Shown here in pieces: positions 9,961-39,173 of a stretch of DNA of 64,000 nucleotides. The position numbers were made by a program, and so were the translations under genes. The stretch is from Mustelus asterias. Taxonomy: Eukaryota. The notes beneath the pieces were generated by a model. That model was not told the DNA's origin, made no database searches, and saw nothing but the letters and a program-made list of their open reading frames with translations. The first letter of the stretch is position 1; each line of letters starts with the position of its first letter. The DNA is taken from assembly GCF_964213995.1 (NCBI RefSeq), contig NW_027590536.1, positions 186,001 to 250,000 of the forward strand, in the 5' to 3' direction.

Positions 9961-10998
9961 GATGCGGGTGTCCTTGTGACTCTCCAGGTTTGATGATCAG
10001 TTGAATCCTTGTCCACACAGAACACGTGTACGATCTCTCTTCACTGTAAACGGTGCAAAAGCTCTTCCCACTATCAGTGGACTGGAACACTCTCACTCGG
10101 GTGTGTTCCAGTCACACTGATGTTTAAAATCTCCTGAAGCAAACAGATCAGACAAACATTGCTTTTCTAGATTCAAAGGTCAATGATATTCAGGTCCCAA
10201 TAAATCGAATGACTCTGTCAAATCTTAATGTGATGTTTAGTTTGAAATTTCTGTCTGTAAGTTCTCACCTCCTGATATCTATGAAAGGAATTTACAACAG
10301 ACATCACTGTCAGTACAAGATAGAAATTCAGAACAGACAATTCTAGTTTCTATGGAACATTCTTTCCTCTCTCATTCCCCAAAAGCTGTCAATCGTCATC
10401 CCACACACTCTCCCTCAATTCTCACTCTGCTCTCCTGAGTATACAACCTCCCAAGTCTATTGAAGGTGCTGATTCAGGCTGATTAACGGATCCATGCTGA
10501 CCACTTTCTATATTGGACACAGAGATCTGAAAACCTACGTGTAACGTCCGGCCTACGTGCTAGAAATTAAAATCTGTGCCATATGTGGGACTGGATAACT
10601 GGATTGGGAGAAGGAGAAGGATGTGGGGAAGAATTTTATTTTGGTGCAGAAAGGTCATTACCTGGAAGCCGCTGCCTCAGGGGGTTGTGGAAGTGCAAAT
10701 GATCCATGATTAATCTTCAAGCTGACAGCCACGTTAAAGTTTTACATTTGGCCATAAATGAGCAGACTGATGCTGTGTGTAATGCACTGTATTACCTGGT
10801 TACAGATACATGAAGAATGTGAGGAGGATTTTTATTTCGGCAGCGAGTGGTGACCTGGAAGTTAAAAATTCAACAAGTCCCCAATTTCCCCCAGAATGCA
10901 AAAGAAACGCAAAAGGGGAGAAAAGAAAGTGTTTTACTCACAGATGTTGGCCTCTTTTTGGTCAAAAGGAGCTCACAAACTATTTTTCAAATTGACAT

Positions 10999-11071
10999 CG
11001 AGCCAGCCAGGAGTCGAACCTGGAATCTTCTGATCCATAGTCAGACGCGTTATCCATTGCGCCACTGACCC
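10999..11071 (-). tRNA. tRNA-Arg(ACG)-derived copy with anticodon mutated to ATG (probable retropseudogene)
   Basis: GGGTCAGTGGCGCAATGGATAACGCGTCTGACTATGGATCAGAAGATTCCAGGTTCGACTCCTGGCTGGCTCG matches vertebrate tRNA-Arg-ACG except C4T and C35T. Confidence 0.92.
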
Positions 11072-11099
11072 ACACTCTCACAGATGGTGCCGACAGGAG

Positions 11100-11430
11100 G
11101 AAGGTTGAGTCTGTCTGAAGCTCAATCTCCATTCAGAGAGAGAAGCAGCAGCAGCAGCTTCGCTCGGCAGGAATGAGCAGCTGAACAAGCTCATTGTGCA
11201 ACTTCCGCATTCAGACCATGGGGGAGCTCTGATTGGCTGGAGGAGCAGAGAACTTCCGGTCCTCCAGAGTTCCCATTGGTCAGCACGTTAGAATGTTCGC
11301 GGTGGGGGGGGGGGGGGAGAGGTCCCCACCGCACATGCGCAGCTTCCCCTCTCCCTTGGACATGCGCAGCCCCAGGCCTTTGGGGAGTGGACAGATTCAA
11401 TCTCCCTCTTGTCCTCAGCATTCCTCCTGT
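11100..11430. promoter_or_regulatory. Bidirectional promoter between ZNF genes A (-) and B (+)
   Basis: Two ATTGG (CCAAT) boxes, ETS-like ACTTCCGG and two CATGCGCA NRF1-like motifs. Homologous to 20940-21130. Flanked on both sides by outward-facing ATCT|GTGAGT donors. Confidence 0.7.
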
Positions 11431-11526
11431 GGGATAGTAACTGTTGGACTGCTTTTGTTAAACTCGTTCTGTGATTTTAAAGGGTTCAGTAGTGCAATGG
11501 ACACAGTTAAACAGTCCTTAAAAGAG
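11431..11526 (+). mobile_element. 96-bp insertion ending TAAAAGAG in inferred exon 1 of gene B (possible Tx1 3' UTR fragment)
   Basis: Interrupts TTCCTCCTGT...GCCAGCATCTGTGAG and is absent from the paralogous sites. Confidence 0.5.
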
Positions 11527-11562
11527 GCCAGCATCTGTGAGTAAAACACTTTCTTTTCTCCC

Positions 11563-12013
11563 CCTTTCAGGTGAGGAATTCCCACTCACCTGAAGAAGGA
11601 GCTTAAGGCTCCGAAAGCTTGTGGCTTTTGCTACCAAATAAACATAGAAACCCTACAGTGCAGAAGGAGGCCATTCGGCTCATCGAGTCTGCACCGACCA
11701 CAATCCCACCCAGGCCCGACCCCCACATATTTACCCGCTAATCCCTCTAACCTACGCATCTCAGGACACTAAGGGGCAATTTTTAACCTGGCCAATCAAC
11801 AATTTTTAACCTGGCCTGCACATCTTTGGACTGTGGGAGGAAACCGGAGCACCCGGAGGAAACCCACGCAGACACGAGGAGAATGTACAAACTCCACACA
11901 GACAGTGACCTGAGCCGGGAATCAAACCCAGGACCCTGGAGCTGTGAAGCAGCAGTGCTAACCACTGTGCTACCGTGCCGCCCTGTTGGACTTTAACCTG
12001 GTGTTGTTAAACT
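11563..12013. mobile_element. Penelope terminal-repeat fragment interrupted by a SINE
   Basis: CACCTGAAGAAGGAGC...CTACCAAATAAA, then the SINE, then TGTTGGACTTTAACCTGGTGTTGTTAAAC. Confidence 0.75.
11643..11983 (-). mobile_element. HE1-like tRNA-derived V-SINE
   Basis: tRNA-like head with A/B boxes, V-domain (GGGTTTCCTCCGGGTGCTCCGGTTTCCTCCCACAGTCCAAAGA) and CR1-type TTCTATG tail. Confidence 0.9.
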
Positions 12014-12016
12014 ACC

Positions 12017-12252
12017 CAGGACAGGAAGCAGTGAGCATGGATCTGTCAATCAGCCTCAATCAGCACCTTCAGGAGAATTGGGAGGGTGAATATTAGATAC
12101 AGCAGAGTGAGAATGGAGGGAGAGTGTGTGGGATGGAGATTCACAGCTTTTGGGGAATGAGAGAGGAAAGAATGTTCCATAGAAACTAGAATCGTCTGTT
12201 CTGAATTTCTATCCTGTGCTGACATTGATGAATTTTTCAAACTCGTTTACAG
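12017..12252 (+). other. Conserved small 5' exon (uORF MDLSISLNQHLQENWE) plus short intron of gene B
   Basis: ATG, AGG|GTGAAT donor, GCTGAC branch-like site and TTTACAG acceptor. Near-identical copies precede other ZNF genes. Confidence 0.65.
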
Positions 12253-12610
12253 GATATGAGAAGGTGAGGATTGACAGACCAAAATCTTGAAACAAACATC
12301 ACATCAGCATTTGACACCCTCACTCAATTCATCGGACCTGAATATTATCAGCCTTTGAATCTAGAAGGAGAAATGTTTCTCTGTTCTGTCTGCGTCAACC
12401 GGCCTTTAATATCAATGTGACTGGAAAAGTACCAAGGCGCAGATACACCCGAGTGACAGTGTTCCACTGCACTGAGTGTGGAAAGAGCTTTAACCAGTTA
12501 CACAGCCTAAAAATACATCGCAGCATTCACAACGGGGAGAGACTGTACCCACGTTCTGTGTGAGATTTAACTGACTGTTTAACCTGGAGAGTCACAAGGA
12601 CACCCGCACC

Positions 12611-13984
12611 ATGGAGAAACCGTGGAAATGTGGGGACTGTGGGAAGAGATACAGAGCCCCCTGTGACCTGGAAATCCATCGACGCAGTCACACCGGAGAG
12701 AGGCCATTTACCTGCTCTGTGTGTGGGAAGGGATACATTCAGTTATCCCACCTGCTCAGACACAAAGTCACTCACAGCAATGAGAGACCCTTTAAATGCT
12801 CTGACTGTGGAAGCAACTTCAAACGTGCTGCGGATCTGAGAGAGCACGAGCGCATTCACACTGAGGAGAGACCGTTCAGCTGCTCTCTCTGCACAATGAC
12901 ATTTCGAAGGTCATCCAACCTGCGGCAACACCAGCGAGTTCACACTGGGGACAGACCGTTCACCTGCTCTGTGTGTGGGAAGGGATTCACTCAATTATCC
13001 AGCCTGATGAAACACAAAGTCACTCACACCCAGGAGAGACCCTTTAAATGCTCTGACTGTGGGAGAGGCTTCAAAAGCTCTGGTGAACTGATGTCCCACA
13101 AACGCTTTCACACTGCAGAGGGACTGTTCACCTGCTGTGTGTGTGGGAAGGGATTCAATCGGTCACCCCACCTGCAGACACACCAGCGAGTTCATACTGG
13201 GGAGAGGCCGTTCACCTGCCCTGTGTGTGGGAAGGGATTCACTCAGTCATCCCACTTACAGAATCACAAAGTCACTCACAGCAATGAGAGACCCTTTAAA
13301 TGCTCTGACTGTGGGAGCGGCTTCAAAAGTGCTGCGGATCTGAATATCCACCAGCGCATTCACACCGAGGAGAGACCGTTCAGCTGCTCTCACTGCACAA
13401 AGAGGTTCAAAACCTCATCCAATCTGCGGGTACACCAGCGAGTTCACACTGGGAAGAGGCCATTCACTTGCTCTGTGTGTGGGAAGGGATTCACTCAGAC
13501 ATCTGGTCTGACAACACACAAAGTCACTCACAGCAATGAGAGACCTTTTAAATGCCCTGACTGTGGGCGTGTCTTCAAAAGTGCTGCGGATCTGATGATT
13601 CACCAGCGCATTCACACCGAGGAGAGACCCTTCAGCTGCTCTCACTGCACAAAGAGATTTAAAAGTTCATCCAATCTGCGGAAACACCAGCGAGTTCACA
13701 CTGGGGAGAAACCATTCCCCTGCTGTGTGTGTGGGAAAGGATTCACTCAGTTGTCCAGCCTGCTGAAGCACAAAAGCACTCACACCCAGGAGAGAGCCTT
13801 TCAATGCACTGACTGTGGGACTGGTTTTGAAAGCTCTCATGAACTGTTGATTCACCAGCGAGTTCACACTGAGGAGAGACCATTCCCCTGCTCTGTGTGT
13901 GGAAAGGGATTCACTCAGTCATCCAGCTTGCTGAGACACAATGTTACTCACAGCAAGGAGAGACCCTTTAAATGCTCTGACTGA
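12611..13984 (+). CDS. C2H2 ZNF protein, 457 aa, 16 fingers (gene B)
   Basis: ACCATGG start and 16 complete fingers. Ends at a Cys-position TGA in finger 17; degenerate fingers continue to an HK-stop at 14516. Confidence 0.93.
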   Translation: MEKPWKCGDCGKRYRAPCDLEIHRRSHTGERPFTCSVCGKGYIQLSHLLRHKVTHSNERPFKCSDCGSNFKRAADLREHERIHTEERPFSCSLCTMTFRRSSNLRQHQRVHTGDRPFTCSVCGKGFTQLSSLMKHKVTHTQERPFKCSDCGRGFKSSGELMSHKRFHTAEGLFTCCVCGKGFNRSPHLQTHQRVHTGERPFTCPVCGKGFTQSSHLQNHKVTHSNERPFKCSDCGSGFKSAADLNIHQRIHTEERPFSCSHCTKRFKTSSNLRVHQRVHTGKRPFTCSVCGKGFTQTSGLTTHKVTHSNERPFKCPDCGRVFKSAADLMIHQRIHTEERPFSCSHCTKRFKSSSNLRKHQRVHTGEKPFPCCVCGKGFTQLSSLLKHKSTHTQERAFQCTDCGTGFESSHELLIHQRVHTEERPFPCSVCGKGFTQSSSLLRHNVTHSKERPFKCSD

Positions 13985-14575
13985 GAGGCCGGACTCAAAA
14001 CCTCTCAGGAACTGATGATCAACCAGTGCATTTACACAGGGGAGAGACAGTTCAGCTGCTCTGTGTGTGGGCGTGGCTTCAAAAGCTCTGGCTAACTGGT
14101 GTCCCACCAGCACACTCTCATTGCACAAAGAGATTTAAATGGTCATCCAACCTGCAGGAACACCAGTGAGTTCACACCGGGGAGAGACCATTTACCTGCT
14201 TGGTGAGTGTGAAAGGATTTACTCGGTTATCCAGACTGCACAGACAGAACATCACTCACACTCTGCAGAGATCCTTTAAATTCTCCGAATGTGGGTGCGG
14301 CTTCAAAAGCTCTCAGGAACTGATGATCCACCAGCGCATTCACACTGGAGAGAGGCCATTCAGCTGCTCTGTATGTGGGAAGGGATTCACTCAGTCATCC
14401 AACCTGCAGGTACACAGCGAGTTCACACCGGGCAGAGGCTGTTCACCTGCTCTGACTGTGGGAAGGGATTCACTCAGTCAGCAAACTTGGTGAAACACCA
14501 GCGCTTTCACAAGTGATTACAGTTCTGGGATTATTCTTGTGAATCTTTCTTGCCCTTTCTCCAGTGCCTCTGTTT

Positions 14576-14880
14576 CATAGAATCATAGAAGGCCATTCGG
14601 CCCATCGAGTCTACATCGACCACAATCCCACCCAGGCCCTATTCCCACAACCCCACATATTTACCCTGTTAATCCCCACAAACACTAGTGTTAATTTATC
14701 ATGGCCAATCAACCTAACCCACACATCTTTGGACTGTGGGAGAAAACCGGAGCACCCGGAGGAAACCCACGCAGACACAGAGAGAATGTGCAGACTCCGC
14801 GCAGACAGAGAACCGAGGGCGGAATTGAACCTGGGTCCCTGGCGCTGTGAGGCAGCAGTGCTGACCACCGTGCCACAGTG
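14576..14880 (-). mobile_element. HE1-like V-SINE
   Basis: Head, V-domain and CATAGAAT-repeat tail. Confidence 0.85.
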
Positions 14881-14931
14881 CCAGTGGTTAGCACTGCTGC
14901 CTCACTCCTTTTTCTAAATGGAGATCACAAA

Positions 14932-15985
14932 TAGAACATAGAACAGCACAGCACAGGAACAGACCCTTCAGCCCACGATGTTGTGTCGAACATGATGCCA
15001 AATTAAACTAATCCCTTCAGCCTGCCCTTGGTCCATATTCCTCTATTCCTTACAAATTCATGTGCTTATCTAAAAGCCCATTAAACACCCCTACCACATC
15101 TGCCTCCACCACCGCTCCTGACAGCGCGTTCCAGACACCTACCACTCTGTGTGTAAAAAACTTACCCCTCACATCTCCTTTGAACTTTCCCCATCTCTCC
15201 TGAAGTGCATGCCGCCTAGTAATAGACATTTCAACTCTGTGAAAAAGACTCTGACTGTCAACCCAATCTATGTCTCTTATCATTTTATAGACTTCTATCA
15301 GGTTTCCCCTCAGCCTCCACCGCGTCAGAGTAAACAACCCTAGTTTGTCCAGCCTGTCCTTATAGCTCATACCCTCTAATTCAGGCAGCGTCCTGGTAAA
15401 CCTCTTCTGCATCCTCTCCAAATTCTCCACATCCTTCCTGTAATGCAGCGAACAGAACTGAATGTAATATTCTAAGTGTGGCCTAACCTAACTTTTATAG
15501 AGCTGCAATATGACATCCTGACTCTTGTACTCAATAAAGGTAAGCATGCCTTTGGGAGCTATGGACTTGAACCGCAAGATCCCACTGTACATCAATGCTG
15601 TTCAGGGGTCTGCCATTAACTGGATACTTACCCTGAACATTTGATCTCCCAAAGTGCAGCACCTCACACTTGTCCGGATTAAAATCCATCTGCCATTTCT
15701 CCGCCCATATCTGCAGCTGATCTACATCCCACTGTATCCTTTGACAACCTTCTACACTATCTACAACTTCATCTAGCTTTGTGTCGTCTGCAAACTTAGT
15801 AACCCACACACCCACATTTTCAGCCAAGTCATTGATATATATACCACAAATAGCAGAAGTCCCAGAACAGATCCCTGTGGAACACCACTGGCCACGGACC
15901 TCCAGCCAGAAAACATCCTTGCACCACTATTCTCTGACTTCTATGGGCAAGTCAATTCTGAATCCAAGTGGCCAAGTCACCGTGA
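14932..15985 (-). mobile_element. CR1 LINE 3' fragment
   Basis: ORFs with KFADDTK, WQMDFNPDKC and RFTR motifs; ATAGAAC-repeat tail. Confidence 0.9.
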
Positions 15986-17320
15986 ATCCGAGTCTTCCTA
16001 ACCACAGACCACAGTCAGTAAGGATAGGCAACACCTCCTACCATGATCATCCTCAACACCGGTGCCCCACAAGGCCGTGTCCTCAGCCCCTCCTATATTC
16101 CTTATACACCTATGACAGTGTGGCCAAATTCTCCTCCAACTCAATTTTCAAATTTGCTGATGGCACCACTGTAGTGGGTCGGATCTCAGACAATGACAAG
16201 ATGGAGTGCAGGAAAGAGATAAAGAACCTGCTGAATTGGTGCGACAACAATAATCTCTCCCTCAATGTCAACAAAATGAAGGAGATTGTCATCGATTTCA
16301 AGAAGCGTAGTGGAGAACATGCCCCTATCTACGTCAACAGGGACGATACAGAAATGGTCGAGAACTTCATGTTTTTAGGTGTCAAGATCACCAACAACCT
16401 GTCCTGGTCCCCCCATGCTGACACTATAGTTAAGAAAGCCCACCAATGCCTCTACTTTCTCAGAAGACTAAGGATATTTGACACATCAGCTATGACTCTC
16501 ACCAACTTTTACAGATGCACCATAGAAAGCATTCTCTCTGGTTGTATCACAGCTTGGTATGGCTTCACAGCTCCAGCGACCTGGGTTTGATTCCCGGCTT
16601 GGGTCACTGTCTGTGTGGAGTTTGCACATTCTCCTCGTGTCTGCGTGGGTTTCCTCCAGGTGCTCCGGTTTCCTCCCACAGTCCAAAAGATGTGCGGGTG
16701 AGGTTGATTGGCTATGCTAAAATTGCCCTTAGTGTCCTGAGATGCGTAGGTTAGAGGGATTAGTGGGTAAAATATGTAGGGGTATGGGGGTGGGGCCTGG
16801 GTGGGATTGTGGTCGGTGCCGACTCGATGGGCCGAATGGCCTCTTTCTGTGCTGTAGGGTTTCTATGATTCTATGATTTCTATGATTCTGCTCTGCCCAA
16901 GACCACAATAAACTACAAAGGGTCAGGACACATATTAATGGACTCAAGAGCAGCTTCTTCACTGCTGCCATCAGACCTTTGAATGGACCTACCTCACATT
17001 CAGTTGATCTTTCTTTGCACCCTTGCTATGACTGTAACACTACATTCGGCACTCCCTCCTCCCATCCACTGACTCTGCCTCGGCAAAGCAGCCAGCATAA
17101 TTAAGGACCCTGCCCACCCCGGACATTCTCTCTTCCACCTTCTTCCGTCGGGAAAAAGACACAAAAGTCTGAGGTCACGTACCAACTGACTCAAGAGCAG
17201 CTTCCTCCCTGCTGCCATCAGACCTTTGAATGGACCTACCTCGCATTCAGTTGATCTTTCTCTGCAACCTCGCTATGACTGTAACACTACATTCTGCACC
17301 AGCTTCTTTCCTTCTCAATG
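15985..17320 (+). mobile_element. Rex1/Babar LINE fragment, interrupted by a SINE, with a duplicated 3' end
   Basis: FKFADGTTVVG, LYFLRRL and TNFYRCTIESILSGCITAWYG motifs; the 3' region is repeated at about 16940-17050 and 17190-17300. Confidence 0.88.
16562..16888 (+). mobile_element. HE1-like V-SINE (5'-clipped) nested in Rex1
   Basis: V-domain and TTCTATGA tail; splits the Rex1 WYG|CSAQD coding sequence. Confidence 0.88.
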
Positions 17321-18011
17321 AATAGATTATCCATTTTACTGTAATTTCCCTCACTTTGTGAGCATCTGCAGTGTGTTTAATTGGATCCTGATTGTTTTGA
17401 ACTCAGTTTCTCTCTGGAGTGTGTGTCAGTGCCTTGATGATGTCACAATGTTGTCTCAATCCCCTGGCCACATTAACCATTTCATCTCCTGCTGTGTCTC
17501 AAGTCGCTGTGTGTGTTTGGGACCCGCTCTTCACTCCATCTCACCATGAATTTAGGCTTGCTATTTTTCACATGTAACAAATCACATCTGTACACTCACT
17601 CCAGTATCCCAAAATCATGTCACACATTCCTAACTCTCAGATGTGCTGATGAAAAGATCAAAGTGAGTGTCTGTCTTTCTTATCTCCCCTGTTATGGTGC
17701 TGATATTTCATGTAGTGGCCGGGCTTTCAAATGTGGATTTTTCTAAAACAAAGTTCATGGACAAAGTTGTAAATATCTCCCAGAGAAAGTGATCAACTTA
17801 TTCATCCCATCAACACATTCCAGACTTTCACTGGACTGTAGGTGGATACCAGATTGATATATTCCATTCAACCACACCCAAGGTGAGTTATTCCAATTCC
17901 TTTATTGTCCAGGACAATATATCCACAATATCTTTAAAACAGAAATTAAACATTCCCATTTGATTTCAGGTATTAACATATTCTGTTAGTTTGTTCTTTA
18001 TTGTCAATGTC

Positions 18012-18330
18012 AGGCTGGGGTTGTTCCTCTTGGAGCAAAGGAGGTTGAGGGGAGATTTGATAGAGGTGGACAAGATTCTGACAGGTTTAGATAAGGTGGA
18101 CAAAGAAAAGCTGTTCCCATTAGCTGATGGGACAAGGAAGAGGGGGCCGCAGATTTAAGGTTCTGGATCAGAGGCGCGGAGGGGGTGGGGGGAATGTGAG
18201 GAAGAAGAATATGCAGCGAATGGTAATGACCTGGAACTCGCTGCCTACGAGGGTGGAGGAAGTGGAGACAATAAACAATTACAAAGGAAATTGGATGGGC
18301 ATTTGGGGCATTTCAAACAGAAATGCTGAC
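18012..18330 (+). mobile_element. Old CR1/L2 3' fragment
   Basis: LGLFLLEQRRLRGDLIEV-like sequence; also present inverted at about 855-965. Confidence 0.65.
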
Positions 18331-18567
18331 TAAATATCTCTGAACTTCCTCACACTCTATCACTCTGTGATCCTTGCTAAATCTGAAACCGGGTATCGCA
18401 ACAAGACTCAGAGCATCAGCCCACTGGAGGCAAAGTCATGAGACCGGCCAGTCCTGCAGAAAGAAACCCTCTGACCCTCCCCATTGACCAACTGTGAGAA
18501 TGAACAAAATGCAGTCCTGGATGTAACTGAGAGCAGAAACAATGACAGCAGAATCCAACCCCTGGAA

Positions 18568-19074
18568 TCACTTGTGAACTTGCTGGTGTCTCAGCAGGTG
18601 GGATGAAACTCTGAATCCCTTCCCACACTGAGAGCAGGTGAACGGCCTCTCCCCAGTGTGAACTCGCTGGTGTCTCCGTAGGTCAGATAACTGAATAAAT
18701 CCCTTCCCACACTGAGAGCAGGTGTGTGGTCTCTCCCCAGTGTGAACACGCTGGTGTCTACGCAGGTCAGATAACTGAGGAAATCCCTTCCCACACTGAG
18801 AGCAGGTGTGTGGTCTCTCCCCAGTGTGAACTCGCTGGTGTAACTGCAGGTGAGATGACTGACTGAATCCCTTCCCACACTGAGAGCAGGTGAACGGTCT
18901 CTCCCCAGTGTGAACTCGTTCGTGTGTCTGCAGGCAGTATAACTGAGTGAATCCCTCCGCACACTGGGAGCAGGTGAACGGTCTCTCCCCAGTGTGGCTA
19001 CGCCGATGAGCTTCCAGCTCTGATGGGTATCTGTACCTCTTCCCACAGTCCCCACATTTCCATGGTTTCTCCAT
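18568..19074 (-). CDS. C2H2 ZNF protein, 6 fingers (gene C, CSQC subfamily)
   Basis: [10 protein letters not shown] start at 19074, intact to the HK-stop. Confidence 0.9.
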
Positions 19075-20577
19075 GGTGCAGGTGTCCTTGCCTCTGTCTT
19101 GGGTGGACAATCAGTTGAAGCAGAACACGGGTACAGTCTCTATGGGCTGGGAATGGTGTTACATTTATTCAGGCTGTGTAACTGGTTAAAGCTCTTTAGT
19201 CAGTGCACTGGAACACTCTCACTCCAGTGTGGCAGTGTGTTGCTGCTTTTCCAGTCACACTGATGTTTGAAATATTTTCAAATTGACAGACTGGACAATC
19301 ATTTCTCCTTCTAGATTCAAAGGCCGATGATATTCAGCTCCCAAGGAATATGACTCTGTCAGATCTGACGTGACGTTTGAGATTTCGGCCTGTGATTCCT
19401 CTTTCAATATCCTGTGAAAAGAATTTACAAAATTCAGCAGTGTCAGTGCAGGATAGAAATTCAGAACAGTTATTAAAAGTTTCTATGAAACATTCTTTCC
19501 TCTCTCATTCCCCCAAAGGTAAATCTCCATCCCACACACTCTCCCTCCATTCTCACTCTGCTGTATCTAATATTCACCCTCCCAATTCTCCTGAAGGTGC
19601 TGATTGAGGCTGATTGACAGATCTATGCTCACTACTTCCTGTCCTGGACACAGAGACCATAACAAATAGGAGCTGCAGTCGGCCATTTGGCCCATCGAGC
19701 CTTTTAAACTATTCAATGAGATAATTTGTTCATCTACCTCAGCATCATTCTCCCCACACTAAACCCATGTCCGCTGATATCTTCAATATCTAGAAACCAA
19801 TCAATCTCTCCCCTGAAAATAGTTGATGACTGAGGCTCCACAGTCCTCAGGGGTTGAGAATTCCAAAGCTTCCCAACATCCTTGAGTGAAGAAATCTCTC
19901 CTCATTTTAGCTTTCTCTCCATCTTTCTACCTGTCGCCCATAACCCTTGACACCATTGTCAATCACAAATCTGGCTAACTCATCCTGGAATATATTCAAC
20001 CTGGAATATAACAACCCTCTGAGGGAAGTCGAAAATATATAACATAGCTACAGTTCCATCTTACAAGTCTATGGATTCTATTTAAAAATGAACCTGGATG
20101 GGTACTTGAAGGAAATAAATTTGCAGGGGAACGGAATATAGAGGGGAATGGGACTGGATTGTTCTACAGAGAGTCGGCATGGACTCAAGTTACCAAATGG
20201 ATTCCTTCTGTGCTGTAATGACTCTATGACTGGAAATACATAACAGCAACAGCATTATATTACAAGACTAGAAATAATAAATGTATTTTGTTACAGGACC
20301 ACAAATAATATATCTAATCTGTACCATATAACAACAGTAGATATATCTCGTCCTATATTAATTTACTTTCCACTTAAATGTCAGCCATCTACTGGCTGAA
20401 CCAGTCCTTTAATTGTGAACATCAGGAAAGAGACCATCCTTTTAGCCAGACAAATAAACGTGTCAAGCTGAGGGAGCAAAGGATGTCAATGTCTTTCAGA
20501 GAGAGAAACCTGGGCCAACCTTTCCAGAGTCTGCAGCCTCCCTGGATTCACTTCCTTTCCCTTCACTTGCTGTAAGT

Positions 20578-20855: not shown

Positions 20856-20939
20856 AATTTGAAGTTCCCAATTTACCCAGAATGAGAAAAGAAATGGAAA
20901 GAATGAGAAAATAAAGTGTTTTACTCACAGATACTGGAG

Positions 20940-21410
20940 GAAGTTTCAGTCTGTCTGAAGCTCAATCTTCATTCACATAAAGCCCTCTGATTGGCTGGAG
21001 GACCAGGGTCCTTCCGGTCCTCCAACTCTTCCCATTGGTCAACACGTCAGCAAGAAGGCCAGGAGGTTAGGCGCACCCCGCACATGCGCAGTTGCTCCTC
21101 TCCTTTGGACATGCGCAGTCCTGGGCCTGTGGGAGGGGGAGATCACCGAGCGGCTTCTCGCTCTGGCCGGAGCCGTCAGCCGGTTGGCTGGAAAGCTTGG
21201 CTCGATGTGGTTTAGGGGGAGGGGAACAATGGGTGGGGGCGGGGCTCCCGGGTCCGCGCGCCCGGGCCTGCGCACTGGAACCCGGAGACGTCACCGCGGA
21301 GCGCAGTGATTCCTATTGGTTGATTCAGGCAAAGCTCCATTGTGACATCACAATGCGGAAGTTGTCCAATGAGCTTCAGAGTGAAACTCCCTCCTCTGGA
21401 CAACATCTGG
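20940..21410. promoter_or_regulatory. CpG-rich bidirectional promoter between ZNF genes C (-) and D (+)
   Basis: CpG-rich, with CCAAT boxes, CTTCCGG and CATGCGCA motifs; paralogous to 11100-11430. Confidence 0.72.
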
Positions 21411-22153
21411 GAGGAAATCAATGTTTCCCCCTTTCCATTTCTTTTCTCATTCTGGGGGAAATTGGAGACTTGCAGCAACTGAAGGGAAAGGAAGTGAATC
21501 CAGTCTGTATATTCCACACATTTTTAGCCCAGTAATTTAGACATCTGTCTGGCAGCCTGCATGGAGATTTTCAGCTCTCTGTGTCTAGGACAGGAAGCAG
21601 TGAGCATGGATCTGTCAATCAGCCTCAATCAGCACCTTCAGGAGAATTGGGAGGGTGAATATTAGATACAGCAGAGTGAGAATGGAGGGAGAGTGTGTGG
21701 GATGGAGATTTACAGCTTTTGGGCAATGAGAGGGGAAAGAATGTTCCATAGAAACTGGAATTGGCTGTTCTGAATTTCTAACCTGTGCTGACAGTGATGA
21801 ATTTTGTAAATTCTTTTTGCAGCATATGAGAAGGTGAGGATTTACAGGCAGAAATCTCAAACTAAACGTCACTCTATTCATTGGGACCTGAATGCTATTG
21901 GCCTTTGAATCTAGAAGGAGAAATGTTTCTCTGTCCTGTCTGCTTCAGAAGGTTTTGAACATCAGTGTGACTGGACAGACACACACACACCTGACTGAGA
22001 GTGTTCCAGTGCACAGACTGAAGAAAGAGCTTTAACCAGTGACACAACTGAAAAAAGCATCTCAACATTCTCAGCAGGGAGAACATCATTCCTGTGTTCT
22101 GTGTCAGACTTAATTGATGGTCTAACGTGGGGAGTCACAAGGACACCCGCACC

Positions 22154-22576
22154 ACGGAGAAACCGTGGAAATGTGGGGACTGTGGGAAAGGATTCAGTTT
22201 CCCATCTCACCTGGAAACTCATCGACGCAGTCACACTGGGGAGAGACCATTCACCTGCTCTGTGTGTGGGAAGGGATTCACTCAGTTACCCAACCTGCTG
22301 AGTCACAATCTTGCTCACACCCCGGAGAGACCGTTTAAATGTTCTGACTGTGGGAGCGGATTCAAAAGCTCTCAGGTACTTAGGGTCCACCAGCGCATTC
22401 ACACTGAGGAGAGACCGTTCAGCTACTCTCACTGCACAAAAAGATTTAGAACGTCATTCAACCTGCGGGTACATCAACGAGTTCACACTGGGGAGAGACC
22501 ATTCACCTGCTGTATGTGTGGGAAGGGATTCACTCAGTCATCCCAGCTGCTGAGACACCAACGAGTTCACAAGTGA
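22154..22576 (+). pseudogene. ZNF gene D, 5 fingers, start ATG changed to ACG
   Basis: ACCACGGAGAAACCGTGG where paralogs have ACCATGG; finger 4 has Cys replaced by Tyr. Confidence 0.75.
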
Positions 22577-25405: not shown

Positions 25406-25409
25406 CCTG

Positions 25410-25700: not shown

Positions 25701-25724
25701 TTCACAACATTCTCTCCTCCTGCT

Positions 25725-26474: not shown

Positions 26475-26813
26475 TCATAGAAACCCTACAGTGCAGAAGG
26501 AGGCCATTCGGCCCATCGAGTCTGCACCGACCGCAATCCCACCCAGGCCCTACCCCCACATATTTTTACCCGCTAATCCCTCTAACCTACGCATCCCAGG
26601 ACTCTAAGGGGCAATTTTTTTTTTTAACCTGGCCAATCAACCTAGCCCGCACATCTTTGGACTGTGGGAGGAAACCGGAGCACCCGGGGGAAACCCACAC
26701 AGACACGAGGAGAATGTGCAAACTCCACACAGACAGTGACCCGAGCCAGGAATCGAACCCGGGACCCTGGAGCTGTGAAGCAGCAGTGCTAACCACTGCG
26801 CTACCGTGCCACC
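26475..26813 (-). mobile_element. HE1-like V-SINE
   Basis: Full head, V-domain and tail. Confidence 0.9.
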
Positions 26814-26923
26814 CAGATGGTCTCTTTCTGGTGTGGCTGTGCTGCTGTCAATAGGATAACTGACCACTTACATTCCAGAACTGACTGAGTCAGCACTGCC
26901 CTATTTCCAAGACCAACATTGAG

Positions 26924-29751: not shown

Positions 29752-29975
29752 TAAGGGATTCATTAATTCATCCAACCTTCTGATACACCAGCAGCTCCAT
29801 ACAGGGGATTGACCGTTCACCTGCTCTGTCTGTGGGAAGGGATTTTCTCATTTATCTTATTTTCTGAAACACCAGCGAGTTCACACTGGGGAGAGGCCGT
29901 TCACCTGTAATGTCTGTGGAAAGGGATTTATTCAGTCATCCCACCTGCTAACACACCGGCGAGTTCACAAGGGAC
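29752..29975 (+). pseudogene. Orphan ZNF fragment (about 3 fingers)
   Basis: KGFINSSNL..., CSVCGKGF...[16 protein letters not shown]; includes a stop and a frameshift and has no 5' part. Confidence 0.8.
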
Positions 29976-30934
29976 TGCAAGGTTTGGATTCTACACTTAT
30001 TGATGCTGTTAATCATATTCAGGTCTGAATCATCTTCACTCTGACTTTTTTCTTCTGTTGAGGTTTGATATTCTGAATAAATGTGAAATCGACATTTGAT
30101 TGAATCATTGTTGTAGATTTTTGTCTTTTCCATTTGAGTGTTTAACATCACCAGGCTGGAGCTCAGAAAGGGCAATCTGAGGGAGGATCATACAGTAGGA
30201 ACAGAACTTCATTCTTGACACAGTCCTTCAGGGTCACGCTGAGAGGGACAAACAGCACTTTGGTCTTTTTCGTCACTTTTCACTGACAGCAAAGTCCCCG
30301 CGTGGGTGAATCCTGAGGTGTGTAAAAAATGTGTCCCAGTCGTTCTTTTCCATGGTTCCGAGCTCCTAGACACGGAAAAGAAGCTCCTTTACAACTGTGT
30401 TTAGAGTCAGGAAGAACAATGGTGAATGCTGGAAACGTGCTGTCAAAGATTGGTGTAAAACTGGGATCTATTCCTGACTGAGAGTGAAACGGCAGGTTTA
30501 GGTTTCCAGACTAAAAATGCAAAAAAGTCTAAAACATTTTAATGTGTGTGTGTCAGTCCTGGTTTATTGAACAGAAACTGGCTTAAAATAAATTGGTTGA
30601 AGTCTGCATCAAAGTAGCAGCTGGAGACGTTCAAAGGAGCCTGTTAACTGCTGGGACAATTAGACAACAATTTGATTCCCAGATAGAGAAGGAGCTGCAG
30701 TGTGTGTCCAAGAATTCTCAGTTTTGTTGTGTGCTTCCCATCCACTATCCTTCTAAATAAACCTCACTCCTATCAGCCTTTAACCATTATGAACAGAACA
30801 GAGAGAAGCTGAGCAGCATCAGAGTCCTGACTGACCATTTCAGAATGAGTGATGTATTCAGCTGAAGTTTCCTGTTGGTAGTTTTCTGGGTGATCTCCTT
30901 ATTTTGATCATTCTCAGTGATCCCTGGGTGTGAA

Positions 30935-31400
30935 CCTGCTCTCCTCTCTTTCAGACATTCACTCACTTAACATCTCCTCTCTCTCAGAAACTCAATCACT
31001 TAACATCTCTCATCTCTCTCACACTCACTGAACGTCACTCTCTCTCTCCAGGCATTCACTCACACTTACCTCACCTTCCACCTCTCTTACACTCTCACCT
31101 CGCTCCTCTCTTACACTCTAACCTCTCTCCTCTCAGAAACTGTCTTCGTCACTTAATGTCTCTCTATCTTTCTTTCAAACACTCACTCATTTAACCTTCG
31201 TATTTCAGATCTGCTTAAACTTATTCATTGTTTTCTCTCTCTCATTATCTCTCTTTGAAAAAGCACAAACACACTTCATCTCTCTTCGCTGTCTGAGAAA
31301 ATATCTAATTGATGGAGATTCAGTCCTCTCTGTTTCTCTCTCCCACTTCCTCTGACAGCCCCTGACTCACTTTAAATCCCCTCTTTTCTGATAACCCTCT
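30935..31400. repeat. CT/CA-rich low-complexity tract
   Basis: Degenerate CACTCACTTAACATCTC units with pyrimidine bias. Confidence 0.6.
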
Positions 31401-31760
31401 TTGGGAAAACTCATTTGTTCTCTAATTCCTCCTCATTTCGCCCAGTGATGACCCTCAGTCCATCTCCCAATTCAGTGAATGTGTTAAAAATCCAATTAAT
31501 CTCCTTTCTTTATTGTTTAAAATGGGAATGGAGGTGAATGTAATGCTGAGACCAGTAGCAATCTGTGTGGTTGTTCTTGATGCTGTCAGAGTGAGTTCAC
31601 CCTCACAGGAAGGAAGACTGTTCACGGTGATAACATCAAACTGACGCCGGCTGTTTCATTCTCAGGTAACACAACTTCCTGTTTCTCTGCTGCCGGTTCA
31701 AAAACGCACATCTCACTTCTGAGCAGAAAATAAATCCAGGCACAACAATCTGGTGAGAAC

Positions 31761-32117
31761 GGGCGGCACGGTAGCACAGTGGTTAGCACTGCTGCTTCAC
31801 AGCTCCAGGGACCTGGGTTTGATTCCCAGCTCGGGTCACTGTCTGTGCGGAGTTTGCACATTCTCCTCGTGTCTGCGTGGGTTTCCTCCTGGTGCTCCGG
31901 TTTCCTCCCACAGTCCAAAGATGTGCGGGTTAGGTTGATTGGCCAAACTCAATTGCCCCTTAGTGTTCCGGGATGCGTAGATTAGAGGGATTAGCGGGTA
32001 AATATGAGGGTTAGGGGTATTAGCGGGTAAATATGTAGGGATATGGCCTGGGTGGGATTGTTGTCGGTGCAGACTTGATGGGCCGAATGGCCTCTTTCTG
32101 CAGTAGGGTTTCTATGG
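31761..32117 (+). mobile_element. HE1-like V-SINE
   Basis: Full-length, with an internal TTAGCGGGTAAATATG duplication. Confidence 0.9.
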
Positions 32118-33881
32118 TTTATTAACAGTTCTATGTTTATAACATCTGTCAATGCGGCCTTTATCTGTCCACAGAGTCAGGGCAGAGTCACACAGGTCAC
32201 TTTGTGGTGACATTTACAAATGAGCCTGTTATTTCTGTTCAGAGTTTCCATTCCCCGGATATAACCGGCTGTGTTTGTGGATCAGTTACTGAGTTCCCTC
32301 TGCTCCCCATAGCCAGGAACTGATAGCCTGCTCCCTCATATTGTATATCATTCTCTCTGTATTGCTTGTTTCCTCTGTTTCTCAGCTTTTATCTTTGACC
32401 ACCTCATCTTTCTGCTTTTTAAAATCTCTCTCAGTTCTTCTCTCAGTCTTTCTGTCTCTCCCTTCCTCTGTAACTTTCTCAGGCTCTGATTGTTCCTATC
32501 TAATCGAGATGTTCAAAATCATGAAGAGTTTCTGATTGATTACAGAGGGAAAAACAGGGAGAAAAGCAGAAAAACACGGCAGATCCGGCGGCATCTGTTC
32601 AGAGAGTTAACATTTTGAGTCCATATAATTCTTCAGGGCAGGAAAAACATGGGTTATCCATCTTAGATCAGGGAATGTGCTGGGGAGATTTAATAGAGGT
32701 GTTTAAAATGACAAATGATTTATGGTAGTGTCAATGGAGAGAAATTATCTCCCAGGAGCAGGAGGGTCTGTCGATGGAGAGAATCGATTTCCCCGGTGCA
32801 GGAGGGTCTGTAAGCAGAGGACACAGAGATTTAATTTAATTGACAACAGAATTGGAGGGGATGATAAGGAGAATGTTTTACACAATAACTTGATATGATC
32901 TGGAATGCACAAACTGACAGGTGCTAGAAGCAAGTTTAATAGTAGCTTTCAAAGGGAATTGGATAAATACTTGCAGAGGATAAATTGGCAAAGTTATGGT
33001 GAATGGGATTAATTAGACAGTTCACTCATCTTTGTGACATTCTGAATGTATCTCTCCTCAGGTTTTAATATTTGATCTTTTCGATTATAATGTGTCTCAA
33101 ACAGAAGATTAAAATATTGGGTTTGATGAGCTGTCAGATCTCTTTCCTGTGTGTCTGTGTAACTTGAGAACTGGAGATGACCATGAGGAGGAACTGATTA
33201 TTTTCAGTTCCTCTAACAGATACACCTCAGATATCAGAAATCCCTGGAGTTTCCCATGTCCTCATTATTCTCGCCTCGACTATAACAGCTCTCAGTCAGG
33301 CCGAGTCAGTCACATGTGTCTCTGTCATGATGTTTCCACTTGTATTTTATCACTCACCTCCCAGTGACACTCACCATAACACAGACACCTTAAAATATCA
33401 TTGTTCCCTTGCACTTTGTCCTCCTATTATAATCAAATGTTTGTTGGGCCTCTTGTCTCCCTTAATGTCAGATTACCTGCAGTTAAAATGACCTCAGAGA
33501 CACTGAAACTGCAGTTGTAAAATACAGCAGAATTGGAATAACAGATAGGTTATTGTCTGATACTGACAGTGGCAGAGTAACACACACCGGAATCTAAATA
33601 CATTATATCAATAGACCACGACTCACTCACACTATCAAATGAAACCTAAACTTTGGTTATGGTGCACGAGATACTGACTGTATCACCATTACATTGGATC
33701 TAATGCTGTGTTCACTAACATACTGCAATGTGACTCTAAATATTTTAACAAACATTGTATTTGTTACACTCAGAGTAAGTCAGTGCTTTGCTGTGTTGTC
33801 TCTGTGCCCCATCTCCACTCTGAATGAATTGGAGCCTGTGTGTGTCATTGTTACACTGAGACTCTGTCACTGTTATTACTA

Positions 33882-35646
33882 ATGTGGAGATGCCGGCGTT
33901 GGATTGGGGTAAACACAGTAAGAAGTTTAACAACACCAGGTTAAAGTCCAACAGGTTTATTTGGTAGCAAAAGCCACAAGCTTTCGGAGTCTTAAGCTCC
34001 TTCTTCAGGTGAGTGGGAATTCTGTTCACAAACAGGGCATATAAAGACACAGACTCAATTAACAGAATAATGGTTGGAATGCAAATACTTACAGCTAATC
34101 AAGTCTTAAAGGTACAAACAATGTGAGTGGAGACAGCATCAAGACAGGCTAAAGAGATGTGTATTCATAGAATCATAGAAACCCTACAGCACAGAAAGAG
34201 GCCATTCAGCCCATCGAGTCTGCACTGACCACAATCCCACCCAGGCCCTACCCCCATATCCCTACATATTTACCCACTAATCCCTCTAACCTATGCATCT
34301 CAGGACACTAAGGGCAATTTTAGCACGGCCAATCAACCTCACCCGCACATCTTTGGACTGTGGGAGGAAACCGGAGCACCCGGAGGAAACTCACGCAGAC
34401 ACGAGGAGAATGTGCAAACTCCACACAGACAGTGACCCAAGCCGGGAATCGAACCCAGGTCCCTGGAGCTGTAAAGCAGCAGTGCTAACCACTGTGCTAC
34501 CGTGCCGCCCCACTGTCCAGACAGGACAGCCAGTGAGACTCTGCAAGTCCAGGCAAGTTGTGGGGATTACAGATAGTGTGACATGAACCCAATATCCCGG
34601 TTGAGGCCGTCCTCATGTGTGCAGAACTTGGCTATCAGTTTCTGCTCAGCGACTCTGCGCCGTCGTGTGTCGTGAAGGCCGCCTTGGAGAATGCTTACCC
34701 GAATATCAGAGGCCGAATGCCCGTGACCGCTGAAGTGCTCCCCAACAGGAAGAGAACAGTCTTGCCTGGTGATTGTCGAGTGGTATTCATTCATCCGTTG
34801 TCACAGCGTCTGCATGGTTTCCCCAATGTACCATGCCTCGGGACATCCTTTCCTGCAGCGTATCAGGTAGACAACTTTGGCCGAGTTGCAAGAGTATGTA
34901 CCGTGTACCTGGTGGATGGTGTTCTCACGTGAGATGATGGCATCTGTGTCGATGATCCGGCACGTGTTGCAGAGGTTGCTGTGGCAGGGTTGTGTGGTGT
35001 CGTGGTCACTGTTCTCCTGAAGGCTGGGTAGTTTGCTGCGGACAATGGTCTGTTTGAGGTTGTGCGGTTGTTTGAAGGCAAGAAGTGGGGGTGTGGGGAT
35101 GGCCTTGGCGAGATGTTCGTCTTCATCAATGACATGTTGAAGGCTCCAGAGGAGATGCCGTAGCTTCTCCGCTCCGATGAAGTACTGGACGACGAAGGGT
35201 ACTCTGTCCACCTTGTCCCGTGTTTGTCTTCTGAGGAGGTCGGTGCGGTTTTTCGCTGTGGCGCGTCGGAACTGTCGATCGATGAGTTGAGCGCTATATC
35301 CTGTTCTTATGAGGGCATCTTTCAGCGTCTGGAGGTGTCTGTTGCGATCCTCCTCATCCGAGCAGATCCTGTGTATACGGAGAGCTTGTCCGTAGGGGAT
35401 GGCTTCTTTAACGTGTTTAGAGTGGAAGCTCTCCACTCACATTGTTTGTACCTTTAAGACTTGATTAGCTGCAAGGATTCGCATTCCAACCATTATTCTG
35501 TAAATTGAGTCTGTGTCTTTATATGCTCTGTTTGTGAACAGAATTCCCACTCACCTGAAGAAGGGGCTTGAGGCTCCGAAAGCTTGTGTGACGTTTGCTA
35601 CCAAATAAACCTGTTGGACTTTAACCTGGTGTTGTTAAACTTCTTC
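33882..35646 (-). mobile_element. Penelope-like element with GIY-YIG endonuclease and inverted terminal repeats
   Basis: ORF 34801..35436 has IPYGQALRIHRICS and VVYLIRC...WYIGET; about 33920-34130 is inverted relative to about 35435-35646. Confidence 0.92.
34166..34510 (-). mobile_element. HE1-like V-SINE nested in Penelope
   Basis: Full SINE splitting Penelope GATGTGTATT|GTCCAGAC. Confidence 0.9.
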
Positions 35647-35669
35647 CTGTGATTATTGGACAAGCAGCA

Positions 35670-36110
35670 AATCACCGTCACAATGCCCGGCTGATTGACG
35701 GCAGCGCGGACCAATGGGAAGAGGGGACAGTGCTGGAGGACCGACTTGGAGCGGTCGGTCCTCCAACCAATGGGAGCGAAAGAGGGGCGGGGCCGGCTTT
35801 GACTGGAGCATGCGCAGTGTGAGTAATGGCGATGGGAAACGGCTTTTGTTCTGGGCTCGGAAATCTGTTAGAGGTGATTGGAGGTACGGAGAGAGCAATG
35901 GATCGTCCAGGTGGGTGGAAACGCTGCGTAAGCATGTTGTGTCAGCCGCAAACCGCGGAAGAGAACTTCTCGGACCCAGTTTGTACCGAGAAGGGCTGCA
36001 GCTCCTCGTGTTCGTCCCGGGTTAACGTTCGCCATCTTTATTGGGGGCAATATGCAGCAGTGCGCACGTGCGGCCGCCATGTTTGTAGAGGGCAATGTTG
36101 TCAATCAGTG
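35670..36110. promoter_or_regulatory. CpG-rich promoter-like region, probably upstream of ZNF gene E
   Basis: CCAAT boxes, GC box, GCATGCGCA and CGCCATCTT (YY1); inverted homolog at about 54810-54965. Confidence 0.62.
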
Positions 36111-36809
36111 GGAGGGGCTTGTTCCCCAGTGTTCAGAATGGAGACAACTTGTCCATCAAACTGCATCAACCCTGAGTCCCAATGTCTTATTGATGAGGCA
36201 GAGCGGTGGCAGAGAAGGAAAAAGAAAGGAAAATAAAAACAATAAATGCTGGAAAATCTCAGCAGATCTGACAGCATCTGTGGAGAGAGAATAGAACCAA
36301 CGTTTCGAGACTGGATGACCCATAGTCAGGGCTTGTACACGTGTAAACAGAGCATGTAAACTTTGACACCTCCATGTACCCTTGTACACCTCTATCAATC
36401 TACTTTGCTCCAAGGAGAACAACCCCAAGTTCATAGAATCATAGAAATAACCCCAAGAATCATAGAAATAACCCCAAGTTATCCAGCCTAACATTGTAAC
36501 TATAATTCCTCATCCCTGAAACCATTTTGATAAATCTCCTCTGCACCCTGTCAAGGAGCCTCACATCCTCCATAATGTGTGGTGATCACTGGTTTGCACA
36601 GACCCAGGTATTCTGTGTTCCTGTCTGTGATCTCATCGCATACTTACAATTGCACAGTGACATCACCCCCGCTCCCCGGGGATTTCCTCAACTGGGAGAT
36701 TTTTCTCTGATGCCAATGCTTCTGATATCTTTCCAGCTGCAGGCTCCAGCAGGAGATTTTAATATTAAAATCAGTTAAATTGTTTCAGAGGTGAGTGTTT
36801 CTGACCATT

Positions 36810-38404
36810 CACGGGCGCGAGTTCACGTCATAAACCAGCTGGTCACCTCCATGCTGTGGTACCGGCTGGTCCCTTTGACCCCTCCCCCTGGCTTTGTCAC
36901 CGATATCCAGAGAACCCTCGTGCGGTTCTTCTGGGGCAATCGACTGCACTGGGTCCCTGCTGCAGTTTTGCATCTCCCGCTTGAGGAGGGTGGACAAGGT
37001 CTGGTGTGCCTCCGCACTCAGATAGCGACCTTCCGCCTCCAGGCCCTGCAGAGGTACCTTTACGTTGAGCCCCCTCCACAGTGGTGTGCCATGGCGACGT
37101 ATTTCTTCTGCCAGTGGCACGGCCTCAATTATGACGTGCAGCTCCTGCATATCGAACTGGGGCGTGTTCCGACCACCCTGCAGGAGTTGCCCGTCTTTTA
37201 CCAGGACCTCCTCACTGTCTGGAACACGGTCGCCTCGCGACGCAGCTCTCCCCCGTCAGGAGTAGCGGCTCTCGTGACTTCAGGTGGCTGGCGGAGAGGA
37301 GGGCTGTGGACGCCGGGGTGACCAGAATCGGGGACGTGCTCGATGTCGGAGGAGCGGGCTGGATGAGTCCCCGCGTGCTGGCTGAGCGCGCAGGGACGAC
37401 CGTCTGGCGCGCGGCCAAAGCCATCCTAGACCTTAGGACGGTCGTGCTCGGCCCCGAAACTGCACGCAAACTCGAGACGGCGCAGGCATGCGGTGGGATC
37501 CCACCCGAGCGTTCCCCTGTTCGGGCAGAATTCCACATTGGCCCAAAGCCTCAGCCCCCCCCCCCCCCCTGGGTGAGGTGCCCCACAGCCTGAGCCGCCT
37601 CGCGGAAATGTCCTCCGTGCCTTTTTCTACCGCACGGAGGCGTTTCCTGTGCGGGCTGCTGCTGCACACCCTCCACTACCGCCTCCTCGCCTGTCGCCCG
37701 GGTACACCATGGCGGGCCTTGTTGCTGCCGGGTGGCGGAGGTCCCCGCTGGAGGTCCCTCTACGGAGGGATCTCCCCCACTTACGTCTGGGACCTGGGGT
37801 GGAGGGTGATGAATGCAGCAGTTCCGCACAACCGTAGGATTCACTGGTTCACGGGCTCCGAAGACTGCCCTTTCTGCGGCCTTGTGGAGTCCGTGGACCA
37901 TGTCTATGTTGTGTGTCTTAGGCTGCACTCCCTTTATGTTTTCCTAAAGAACCTTTTATTGATGTTTCGTTTGCACTTCAGTCCCATGCTCCTGATCTAC
38001 GCACACCCAGTGCGGAGAGGGGAGGGTCGGGATGGCGACCTCCTCGTGAACCTGCTCCTGGGCCTGGCGAAACGCGCCATTTACCGGTCCAGGCAGCCGG
38101 CGATCGAGGGGGCCGTCCATTCTGACTGTCTCCCCCTCTACCGCGGCTACGTTCGCGGCCAGGTGTCCCTGGAGAGGGAGCATGCGGTGTTCACGGGCGC
38201 GGTTGACGCCTTCCGCGCCCGCTGGGCACCGCAGGGGTTGGGGTGCATTATTGACCCTAATAATCACATTATGATTTGATGTTTTTAAGTTTCCTTTGTA
38301 CTTTGATTTCTGTTCGGGCTGTTCCCCCTCCTTTTTGGGAGCTGCCCCTTTTACTTTGTCCTGATTTAATCTGAGTTTGTTTATTTTGTTTGACCGAAAA
38401 AGAG
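36810..38404 (+). mobile_element. L1-Tx1 clade LINE, 5'-truncated ORF2 C-terminus plus 3' UTR
   Basis: RARVHVINQL, LPLEEGGQGL and the CCHC knuckle CPFCGLVESVDHVYVVC in frameshifted ORFs; T-rich 3' UTR ending TTTGACCGAAAAAGAG. Confidence 0.9.
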
Positions 38405-39173
38405 GGCAACATCTGGGAGAAAATCAATGTTTCCCCCTTTCCATTTCTTTTCTCATTCTGGGGGAAATTGGGGACTTGCAGCAACTGAAGGGAAAGGAAG
38501 TGAATTCGGTCTGTATATTCCACACATTTTTCCTCCAGTAATGTAGACATTTATCTGTCTGGCCGCCTGCATGGAAATTTTCAGCTCTCTGTGTCCAGGA
38601 CAGGAAGCAGTGAGCATGGATCTGTCAATCAGCCTCAAGCAGCACCTTCAGGAGAATTGGGAGGGTGAATATTAGATACAGCAGAGTGAGAATGGAGGGA
38701 GAATGTGTGGGATGGAGATTTACAGCTTTTGGGGAATGAGAGAGGAAAGAATGCTCCATAGAAACTTGAATTGTCTGTTCTGAATTTCTATCCTGTGCTG
38801 ACACTGATGACTTTTGTAAATTCCTTTAGCAGGATATCAGAAGGTGAAAATTTAAAGACGAATATCAAACCAAACTTCACATCAAAATCTAACATAGTCA
38901 CTCAGTTCATTGGGACCTGAATATCATCGACATTTGAATCTAGAATGGAAATGTTTCTCTGCTCTGTCTGCTTCAGGAGATTTTAAACATCAGTGTGACT
39001 GGAAAAGCACCGAGACACACACACACTGAAACGTGCACACACCTCAGTGATTGTGGAAAGAACTTTAACCAGTTAAACAGCCTGAAAATACATTGCAGCA
39101 GAGAGACTGCACCCATGTTATGTTGTAACTGAACTGATTGTCAAGCCTGGAGAGTCGCAAGGACACCTGCACC

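Follow-up and report, generated by a model that had tools for sequence, protein, structure and literature searches.

The window analysed here, a 64,000-nucleotide stretch of Mustelus asterias contig NW_027590536.1 (positions 186,001 to 250,000), lies where C2H2 zinc-finger (ZNF) genes are clustered, several of them paired head-to-head. Three inserts in the 5' modules of these genes (genes A, B and E) are probably all products of one long interspersed nuclear element (LINE) family of the Tx1 clade, whose full-length copies reside almost exclusively in ZNF 5' modules, are likely transcribed from ZNF promoters and likely find their sites through pairing of read-through bases. The feature itself is real: a Tx1 family homes to ZNF genes, though its targeting is leaky; it likely borrows their promoters, and RNA likely assists in the choice of sites. 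A first-pass annotation of the window had proposed that such a family targets exon 1 of ZNF genes, and repeated, independent insertion at one position of the ZNF 5' module was borne out across the 3.68-Gb genome, with 278 of 1,323 exact sites filled and at least 16 junction classes under a strict count.

This position (site 1) reads N-CAACATCTG. None of its 1,323 exact matches were located on contigs C1-C11, and 278 of them (21%) carried the Tx1 tail directly 5' of the motif. The count of filled and empty paralogous sites, which the annotation had suggested, thus left 1,045 sites without the tail, as expected of insert sequence rather than of ancestral ZNF sequence. Junctions were scored on 89 of the first 100 filled sites listed (the remainder being mostly further tRNA-Arg duplicates) and fell by script into 44 classes, three of which corresponded to one amplified event; long copies among the 44 may have secondary breaks. 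A strict count by eye, which required the junction to be promoter-adjacent and the Tx1 sequence to span 50 nt or more, retained at least 16 classes, while chance would yield 0.015-0.04 hits on the 1,323 sites (from ~3,100 first-look tail candidates and the measured short-motif frequency). Besides truncated and full-length elements, the same base had received tails of ~10-24 nt, three transfer RNAs (tRNAs) and a small nucleolar RNA (snoRNA), and in nested double insertions the regenerated site had been used again. Several cargoes at site 1 were enclosed by clean 14-bp duplications.

A second site (TCTCTCTGAATG), ~52 nt upstream, shared no sequence with site 1, and full-length copies occupied either site, in sense. 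TCTC followed 189 tails, and 23 of the first 100 listed lay outside clusters on C1-C68. The annotation had identified the target as ZNF exon 1 and its splice donor: the position within the 5' module stood, but the splice donor itself did not, as type-D genes carry GGGAGG there. The youngest elements were ~99% identical, yet the promoters upstream of them matched at only 72-95% over ~130 bp, with 6 distinct contexts among 7, and the youngest ZNF copies are therefore separate insertions rather than duplicates.

In the window, the three junctions were found where the annotation had named them, each insert having the same orientation as its ZNF gene; the paralogous sites of genes C and D lacked the tail. 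The shared end AAAAGAG was real, but the true element end is one G longer (AAAAGAGG): AAAAGAG was followed by G in 30/30 C1 copies, whereas a G immediately 5' of the upstream duplication was seen in only 10/39 copies. The final G is thus the element's, and the target begins one base later (CCAACATCTG / GCAACATCTG). The 8-mer AAAAGAGG itself occurred in the window at chance level (4 observed, 4.0 expected), and the signal lies in its position.

All three inserts carried the Tx1 tail; that of gene E is a truncated Tx1 copy of 1.6 kb, and the other two are retrocopies of small RNAs (Table 1). The tRNA of the gene A insert was called His by ARAGORN, its anticodon being ATG here and ACG in paralogous copies (L327). 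Both flanks of this insert were common to all 20 copies examined, out of at least 40, so that it represents a single event multiplied with its gene; a reading as a short interspersed nuclear element (SINE) was rejected on the same observation. The gene B insert, described as 96 bp long, was confirmed but starts ~16 nt earlier (11415); in it, a 12-nt Tx1 tail is joined to sequence from the 3' part of SNORA41, a single event present in 24 copies with its source at G000:C25:44139529-44139612. For the gene E copy, neither a target-site duplication nor a matching 5' ZNF promoter was found when both were sought. Its 5' junction recurred in 11 further loci with other 3' flanks, and the flanks of gene E were therefore probably joined by recombination.

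Full-length copies measured 6-7.5 kb and harbored a tRNA-Val-derived head, a long 5' untranslated region (UTR), a first open reading frame (ORF1), an ORF2 encoding endonuclease and reverse transcriptase (EN-RT), no poly(A) and the end AAAAGAGG. They were almost confined to ZNF 5' modules. The head motif gave 113 matches (a lower bound, as a complete copy on C6 was missed by the motif), none of which were on C1-C11, whereas C1 and C2 alone hold 67 tails. Among 30 of these matches examined, 26 stood directly behind ZNF sequence, 3 behind another repeat with a remnant of site 1 kept, and 1 behind another flank. A 21-mer at the start of ORF1 gave 171 matches; 8 of the first 100 listed lay outside cluster regions (the remaining contigs being assumed to be ZNF clusters), and of these eight, 7 were cut within the 5' UTR and 1 was complete (C6). 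Near-full-length copies were also observed within a GGATT-type satellite (L266, L267, L255 and L256; C23 at 7.4-7.6 Mb, and C21), two of them beginning with an apparent 3' half of 5S ribosomal RNA, which was not called by Rfam.

One copy (L325) combined an open ORF1 with an intact ORF2 of 1,304 amino acids (Pfam Exo_endo_phos 13-234, RVT_1 519-767), and intact ORF2s of this length were found five times in total, this copy included. ORF1 was an open frame of 786 codons with a C-x2-C-x4-H-x4-C motif (CCHC zinc knuckle) and no Pfam match. The membership of the Tx1 clade advanced by the annotation was confirmed on a recovered full-length copy, whose APE-type endonuclease and RT group with Xenopus Tx1L. 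ORF2 shared 54% identity with Tx1L over EN-RT and 62% over the RT core, and formed one clade with YTX2_XENLA at 100/100, along with stingray, sturgeon and turtle relatives (tree of 23 rows chosen from 120 listed matches, with L1 and other outgroups left out). The nearest protein relative among the matches listed was from stingray (75% over the RT core). One turtle gene model (P0031) fuses a KRAB zinc-finger protein to a Tx1L-like RT; being a single model, it may be due to chance.

ZNF sequence was carried along by four off-cluster copies. The C6 copy displayed ZNF positions -175 to +11 ahead of its head, with a ~16-bp duplication enclosing leader and element, and the C18 copy a ZNF leader of ~70 nt preceded by non-ZNF DNA; in the youngest subfamily, a leader of fixed sequence and 65 nt in length differed from the host's own downstream copy. 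These leaders point, indirectly, to transcription from ZNF promoters, as put forward by the annotation. On the 3' side, ZNF intron sequence of ~165 nt followed a 306-bp copy on C1, where the 11 kb of flank examined contained no C2H2 motif, and an insert on C3 ran in the order tail, leader, head and poly(A) within an 11-12-bp duplication. Both arrangements suggest read-through past the tail. The tRNA head is unlikely to act as a working promoter, having T-runs immediately behind it and being decayed in the youngest subfamily.

Most copies were scattered outside the ZNF sites. Exact tails numbered 1,516 for the main type and 242 for the CCTT type; 83 of the 1,516 were at site 1 and roughly 160 (estimated) at site 2, amounting to ~16%, a share that is a lower bound with respect to missed variant sites yet inflated by duplicates, to be compared with a 20% threshold for target specificity. 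Flanks in unrelated DNA, with only 3-4 shared bases, were found for 29/30 tails on C1 and 30/30 CCTT-type tails on C1-C5, in samples ordered by position from large contigs. Strict sequence specificity, as implied by the annotation, was thus not supported (59/60 sampled flanks unrelated beyond base 4); the downstream flanks were not random either. Genome-wide, the scattered truncated copies stood at CCA, GCA, ACA or TCTC, depending on subfamily. They were 5'-truncated, with a median of 330 bp, and 39/99 had a duplication (mode 14-15 bp) while 60/99 had none. No U2 3' flank was recognised by eye among these 99 copies. A U2 small nuclear RNA (snRNA) 5' part was observed once, as a 5' addition to a truncated Tx1, the fusion being repeated twice in tandem (L081, G000:C1:112.24 Mb). 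Tx1 3' ends also occurred in tandem arrays of ~255-bp and ~132-bp units (G000:C71:14.94 Mb and C89:2.43 Mb).

The first base of the target was predicted by a tag in the 3' UTR in 66/76 scattered copies, the best of 20,000 shuffles reaching 50. CCTT tags were followed by C (30/30), ATTTGG tags by G (28/34) and ACTTGG types by A (8/12). The shuffle overstates the significance, since copies are related by descent, although each is nonetheless a separate insertion. This test excluded one untagged copy as well as 22 copies that had been selected for TCTC; a single ACTTGG tag was present in 18 of the latter 22. Full-length ZNF copies displayed the same association, with CCTT tails before CCAAC, ATTTGG-type tails before GCA and ACTTGG tails before TCTC. 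By analogy with R2Ol and R1Bm, the simplest reading of the match between tag and target would be that read-through bases pair with the nicked strand.

From these observations, transcription from a ZNF promoter would yield an RNA beginning within the ZNF leader and extending beyond the tail. Nicking would be by an endonuclease of loose specificity, and priming would succeed wherever the read-through bases can pair with the DNA end, the pairing being long at ZNF paralogs (homing) and of only 3-4 bases elsewhere. The leader may also help to join a complete 5' end at ZNF paralogs. After a few nucleotides, the reverse transcriptase would often jump to pre-tRNA, snoRNA or U2 RNA, which could have produced the inserts of genes A and B, and ZNF gene duplication would then have multiplied each insertion event. 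The broader proposition, that an active vertebrate LINE has the 5' ends of a protein-coding multigene family as its homing site, draws on the promoters there and acquires a new target motif with each new master-copy position, with the RNA flank as guide, appears to us about as probable as its negation.

Several observations weigh against this explanation. The link between tag and target was imperfect (10/76 off), with an ATTTGG tag before a CCAA flank in L165 and an ACA-type tag before a TCTC flank in L325, and no full-length ZNF-resident copy with an ACA flank was found among the copies examined. The first target base was the genome's own base in 38/39 duplications, which fits pairing and equally an altered endonuclease preference; endonucleases differed by ~5-13% between subfamilies, at about 20 columns. 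Scattered sites showed the 3-4-base motif only, with no bias at base 5 or beyond. Later deletions or recombination, as at gene E, may have inflated the junction classes, and a C2H2 motif was present within 1.5 kb (the visible span) of only 11/30 other site-1 motifs. No transcript was seen either: the four runs that matched the promoter-leader-head stretch were contigs, none recorded as RNA and two of them T-rich noise, giving neither start nor strand.

Other sequences were observed at or near the insertion sites. A second repeat of ~2 kb with an A-rich end, possibly a non-autonomous partner, inserts at the same site 1 (L275 at G000:C23:3.56 Mb; L167, L258, L296, L226 and L357), and its comparison with ORF2 revealed no similarity. 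Two more pre-tRNA retrocopies on Tx1 tails stood at site 1 (L294 and L302, Rfam tRNA). Sequence resembling site 1 was present inside the element's own 5' UTR, where further copies appear to be inserted (L033, L042, L049, L055 and L056). Two near-full-length copies (L427 and L428, on C36 and C67) had a tail without the last G, just upstream of CpG-rich sequence resembling the L022/L023 flank, perhaps another multicopy promoter being hit.

Guidance by protein rather than by RNA is a clearly less probable reading. Subfamily endonucleases would then have short preferences of their own, and a bound host factor or open chromatin would draw the complex to ZNF promoters; leader capture and read-through would take place without steering the element. 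The endonuclease of Tx1L is itself sequence-specific in vitro according to the accessible text of PMC1950540, the ~20 variable columns include a Y/F difference at the hairpin base in the TCTC subfamily, and the unrelated 2-kb repeat also reached site 1. Later columns of the hairpin loop, however, displayed no subfamily-level difference, all four scattered motifs match ZNF flanks, and insertions fell at few exact positions rather than being spread over the promoter (in a sample biased to those sites).

A stricter form, in which the endonuclease would read the ZNF exon-1/donor sequence as Keno reads U2 and scattered copies would be rare errors, is largely refuted by the scattered flanks and now very improbable: full-length copies were nearly all at ZNF sites and 21% of exact site-1 motifs were filled, but scattered copies formed the majority of exact tails, 59/60 sampled C1-C5 tails had unrelated flanks beyond base 4, and the two sites have no sequence in common. 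Least credible of all is the absence of real targeting, a short-motif LINE having struck few ZNF genes by chance and the pattern having then been made by gene conversion, by segmental duplication and by clusters that tolerate long inserts: duplication was indeed large (at least 40 copies of the tRNA-Arg event, 24 of the SNORA41 event, one 13-member class, tandem arrays and the flank swap at gene E), but it is opposed by the number of distinct promoter-adjacent junctions (at least 16, where 0.04 would be expected), by the variety of cargoes sharing one base, some of which have clean 14-bp duplications, by 99%-identical elements behind diverged promoters and by nested insertions that re-use the regenerated site.

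Within the window, a ZNF exon lay downstream of all five modules (Table 1), and the identity of the module as exon 1 is suggested by CCAAT boxes, CpG content and the GTGAGT donor of type-A genes. Directly upstream of the gene E insert, at 35600-36812, another type of CpG-rich 5' region with a GTGAGT donor was observed, with a 72% copy at 54552-54966. A tRNA-like ARAGORN call at 26738-26818 fell within a repeat having several copies in the window and is probably a SINE head.

Table 1. Coordinates of ZNF exons, Tx1-derived inserts and target sites in the window
Feature	Position	Strand	Remarks
Gene A C2H2 zinc-finger exon	8437..9996	-	
Gene A, 3' copy of 14-bp target-site duplication (CCAACATCTGTGAG)	10937..10950	-	Overlaps likely exon-1 splice donor
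Gene A insert, pre-tRNA-Arg(ACG) retrocopy with 16-nt Tx1 tail	10951..11076	-	5-nt leader; tRNA body 10999-11071; ~30-nt trailer ending TTTT; tail 10951-10966
Gene A, 5' duplication copy	11077..11090	-	Diverged here, exact in 5/20 paralogs (L101, L103, L104-type)
Common head-to-head promoter region, genes A (-) and B (+)	11091..11414	.	Promoter role suggested by CCAAT boxes and CpG content
Gene B insert, SNORA41 3' part and 8 nt of 3' flank (11415-11514), then tail CCTTAAAAGAGG (11516-11527)	11415..11527	+	
Gene B, target site 1 (CCAGCATCTGTGAGT)	11528..11542	+	
Gene B C2H2 zinc-finger exon	12575..13981	+	
Gene C C2H2 zinc-finger exon	18571..19110	-	
Gene C, empty site 1	20921..20940	-	
Gene D, empty site 1	21391..21414	+	Type D; no GT donor there
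Gene D C2H2 zinc-finger exon	22118..22573	+	
Gene E insert, 5'-truncated and frameshifted Tx1 (last third of ORF2 and 3' UTR)	36813..38405	+	93.7% identity to intact copy
Gene E, target site 1 (GCAACATCTGGGAGA)	38406..38420	+	5' junction without matching duplication
Gene E C2H2 zinc-finger exon	39138..40010	+	Frameshifted

For the Tx1 clade, a home niche in a protein-coding gene family would represent a new target class. Of the more than 1,300 zinc-finger gene starts, about one fifth are affected, which bears on the turnover of ZNF clusters, and zinc-finger genes are generally regarded as repressors of transposons. Site 1 also archives nuclear template jumps onto pre-tRNA, snoRNA and U2. Intact, 99%-identical copies exist, with the five 1,304-amino-acid ORF2s, so that cells would allow a direct test of whether a few RNA bases re-aim a LINE of APE type.

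Known targets of the Tx1 clade, as listed in the accessible parts of the sources cited here, comprise RNA genes, microsatellites, satellites and other transposons (PMC4494074, PMC4640811, PMC8869645), with U2, U5 and 5S genes named among the RNA genes (PMC4494074). A ZNF-targeting Tx1 was not found in the literature searched, which did not extend to Repbase or to the majority of subscription papers (among them Kojima and Fujiwara 2004). The specificity rule of Kojima, by which more than 20% of flanks are of one type (PMC4494074), was exceeded by head-bearing copies (26/30 behind ZNF sequence) and is borderline for all copies. Keno, Kibi and Koshi, also of the Tx1 clade, likewise prefer a multicopy target, in their case U2 snRNA genes or microsatellites (PMC4494074); none was identifiable by name in the 23-row ORF2 tree. 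Tx1L of Xenopus laevis (YTX2_XENLA), the closest named protein, likewise has two ORFs with an APE endonuclease and RT, but targets the DNA transposon Tx1D (PMC4494074), whereas the ZNF-site family uses two sites in a protein-coding 5' module and scatters widely.

The SVA subfamily that is transcribed from the MAST2 promoter resembles the ZNF-site family in that a captured host 5' exon became the element's 5' end, but it is non-autonomous, involves a single host gene and, as far as PMC4494074 describes it, does not return to paralogous sites. R2 and R1 offer a parallel for the flanks: they are co-transcribed with their target in 28S ribosomal DNA (rDNA), and annealing of read-through target sequence improves insertion (PMC6795142, PMC7265360). 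They belong to other clades and are strict for an rDNA target transcribed by RNA polymerase I, whereas RNA polymerase II likely transcribes the ZNF host, and most copies of the ZNF-site family lie elsewhere. Tx1-Mar and SINEU of crocodilians are similar in having two preferred positions without shared sequence in one multicopy target, as well as small-RNA heads acquired through template switching and a proposed transcription from the flank (PMC4494074). Compared by description, the target of Tx1-Mar is Mariner-N4 and its heads derive from U1/U2, while the ZNF-site family has the ZNF 5' module and a tRNA-Val head; the link between subfamily and target motif seen here was not met for Tx1-Mar in the accessible text of PMC4494074. 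The family is best placed as a member of the Tx1 clade, with an anatomy like that of Tx1-Mar and a use of its flanks that is likely similar to that of R1 and R2.

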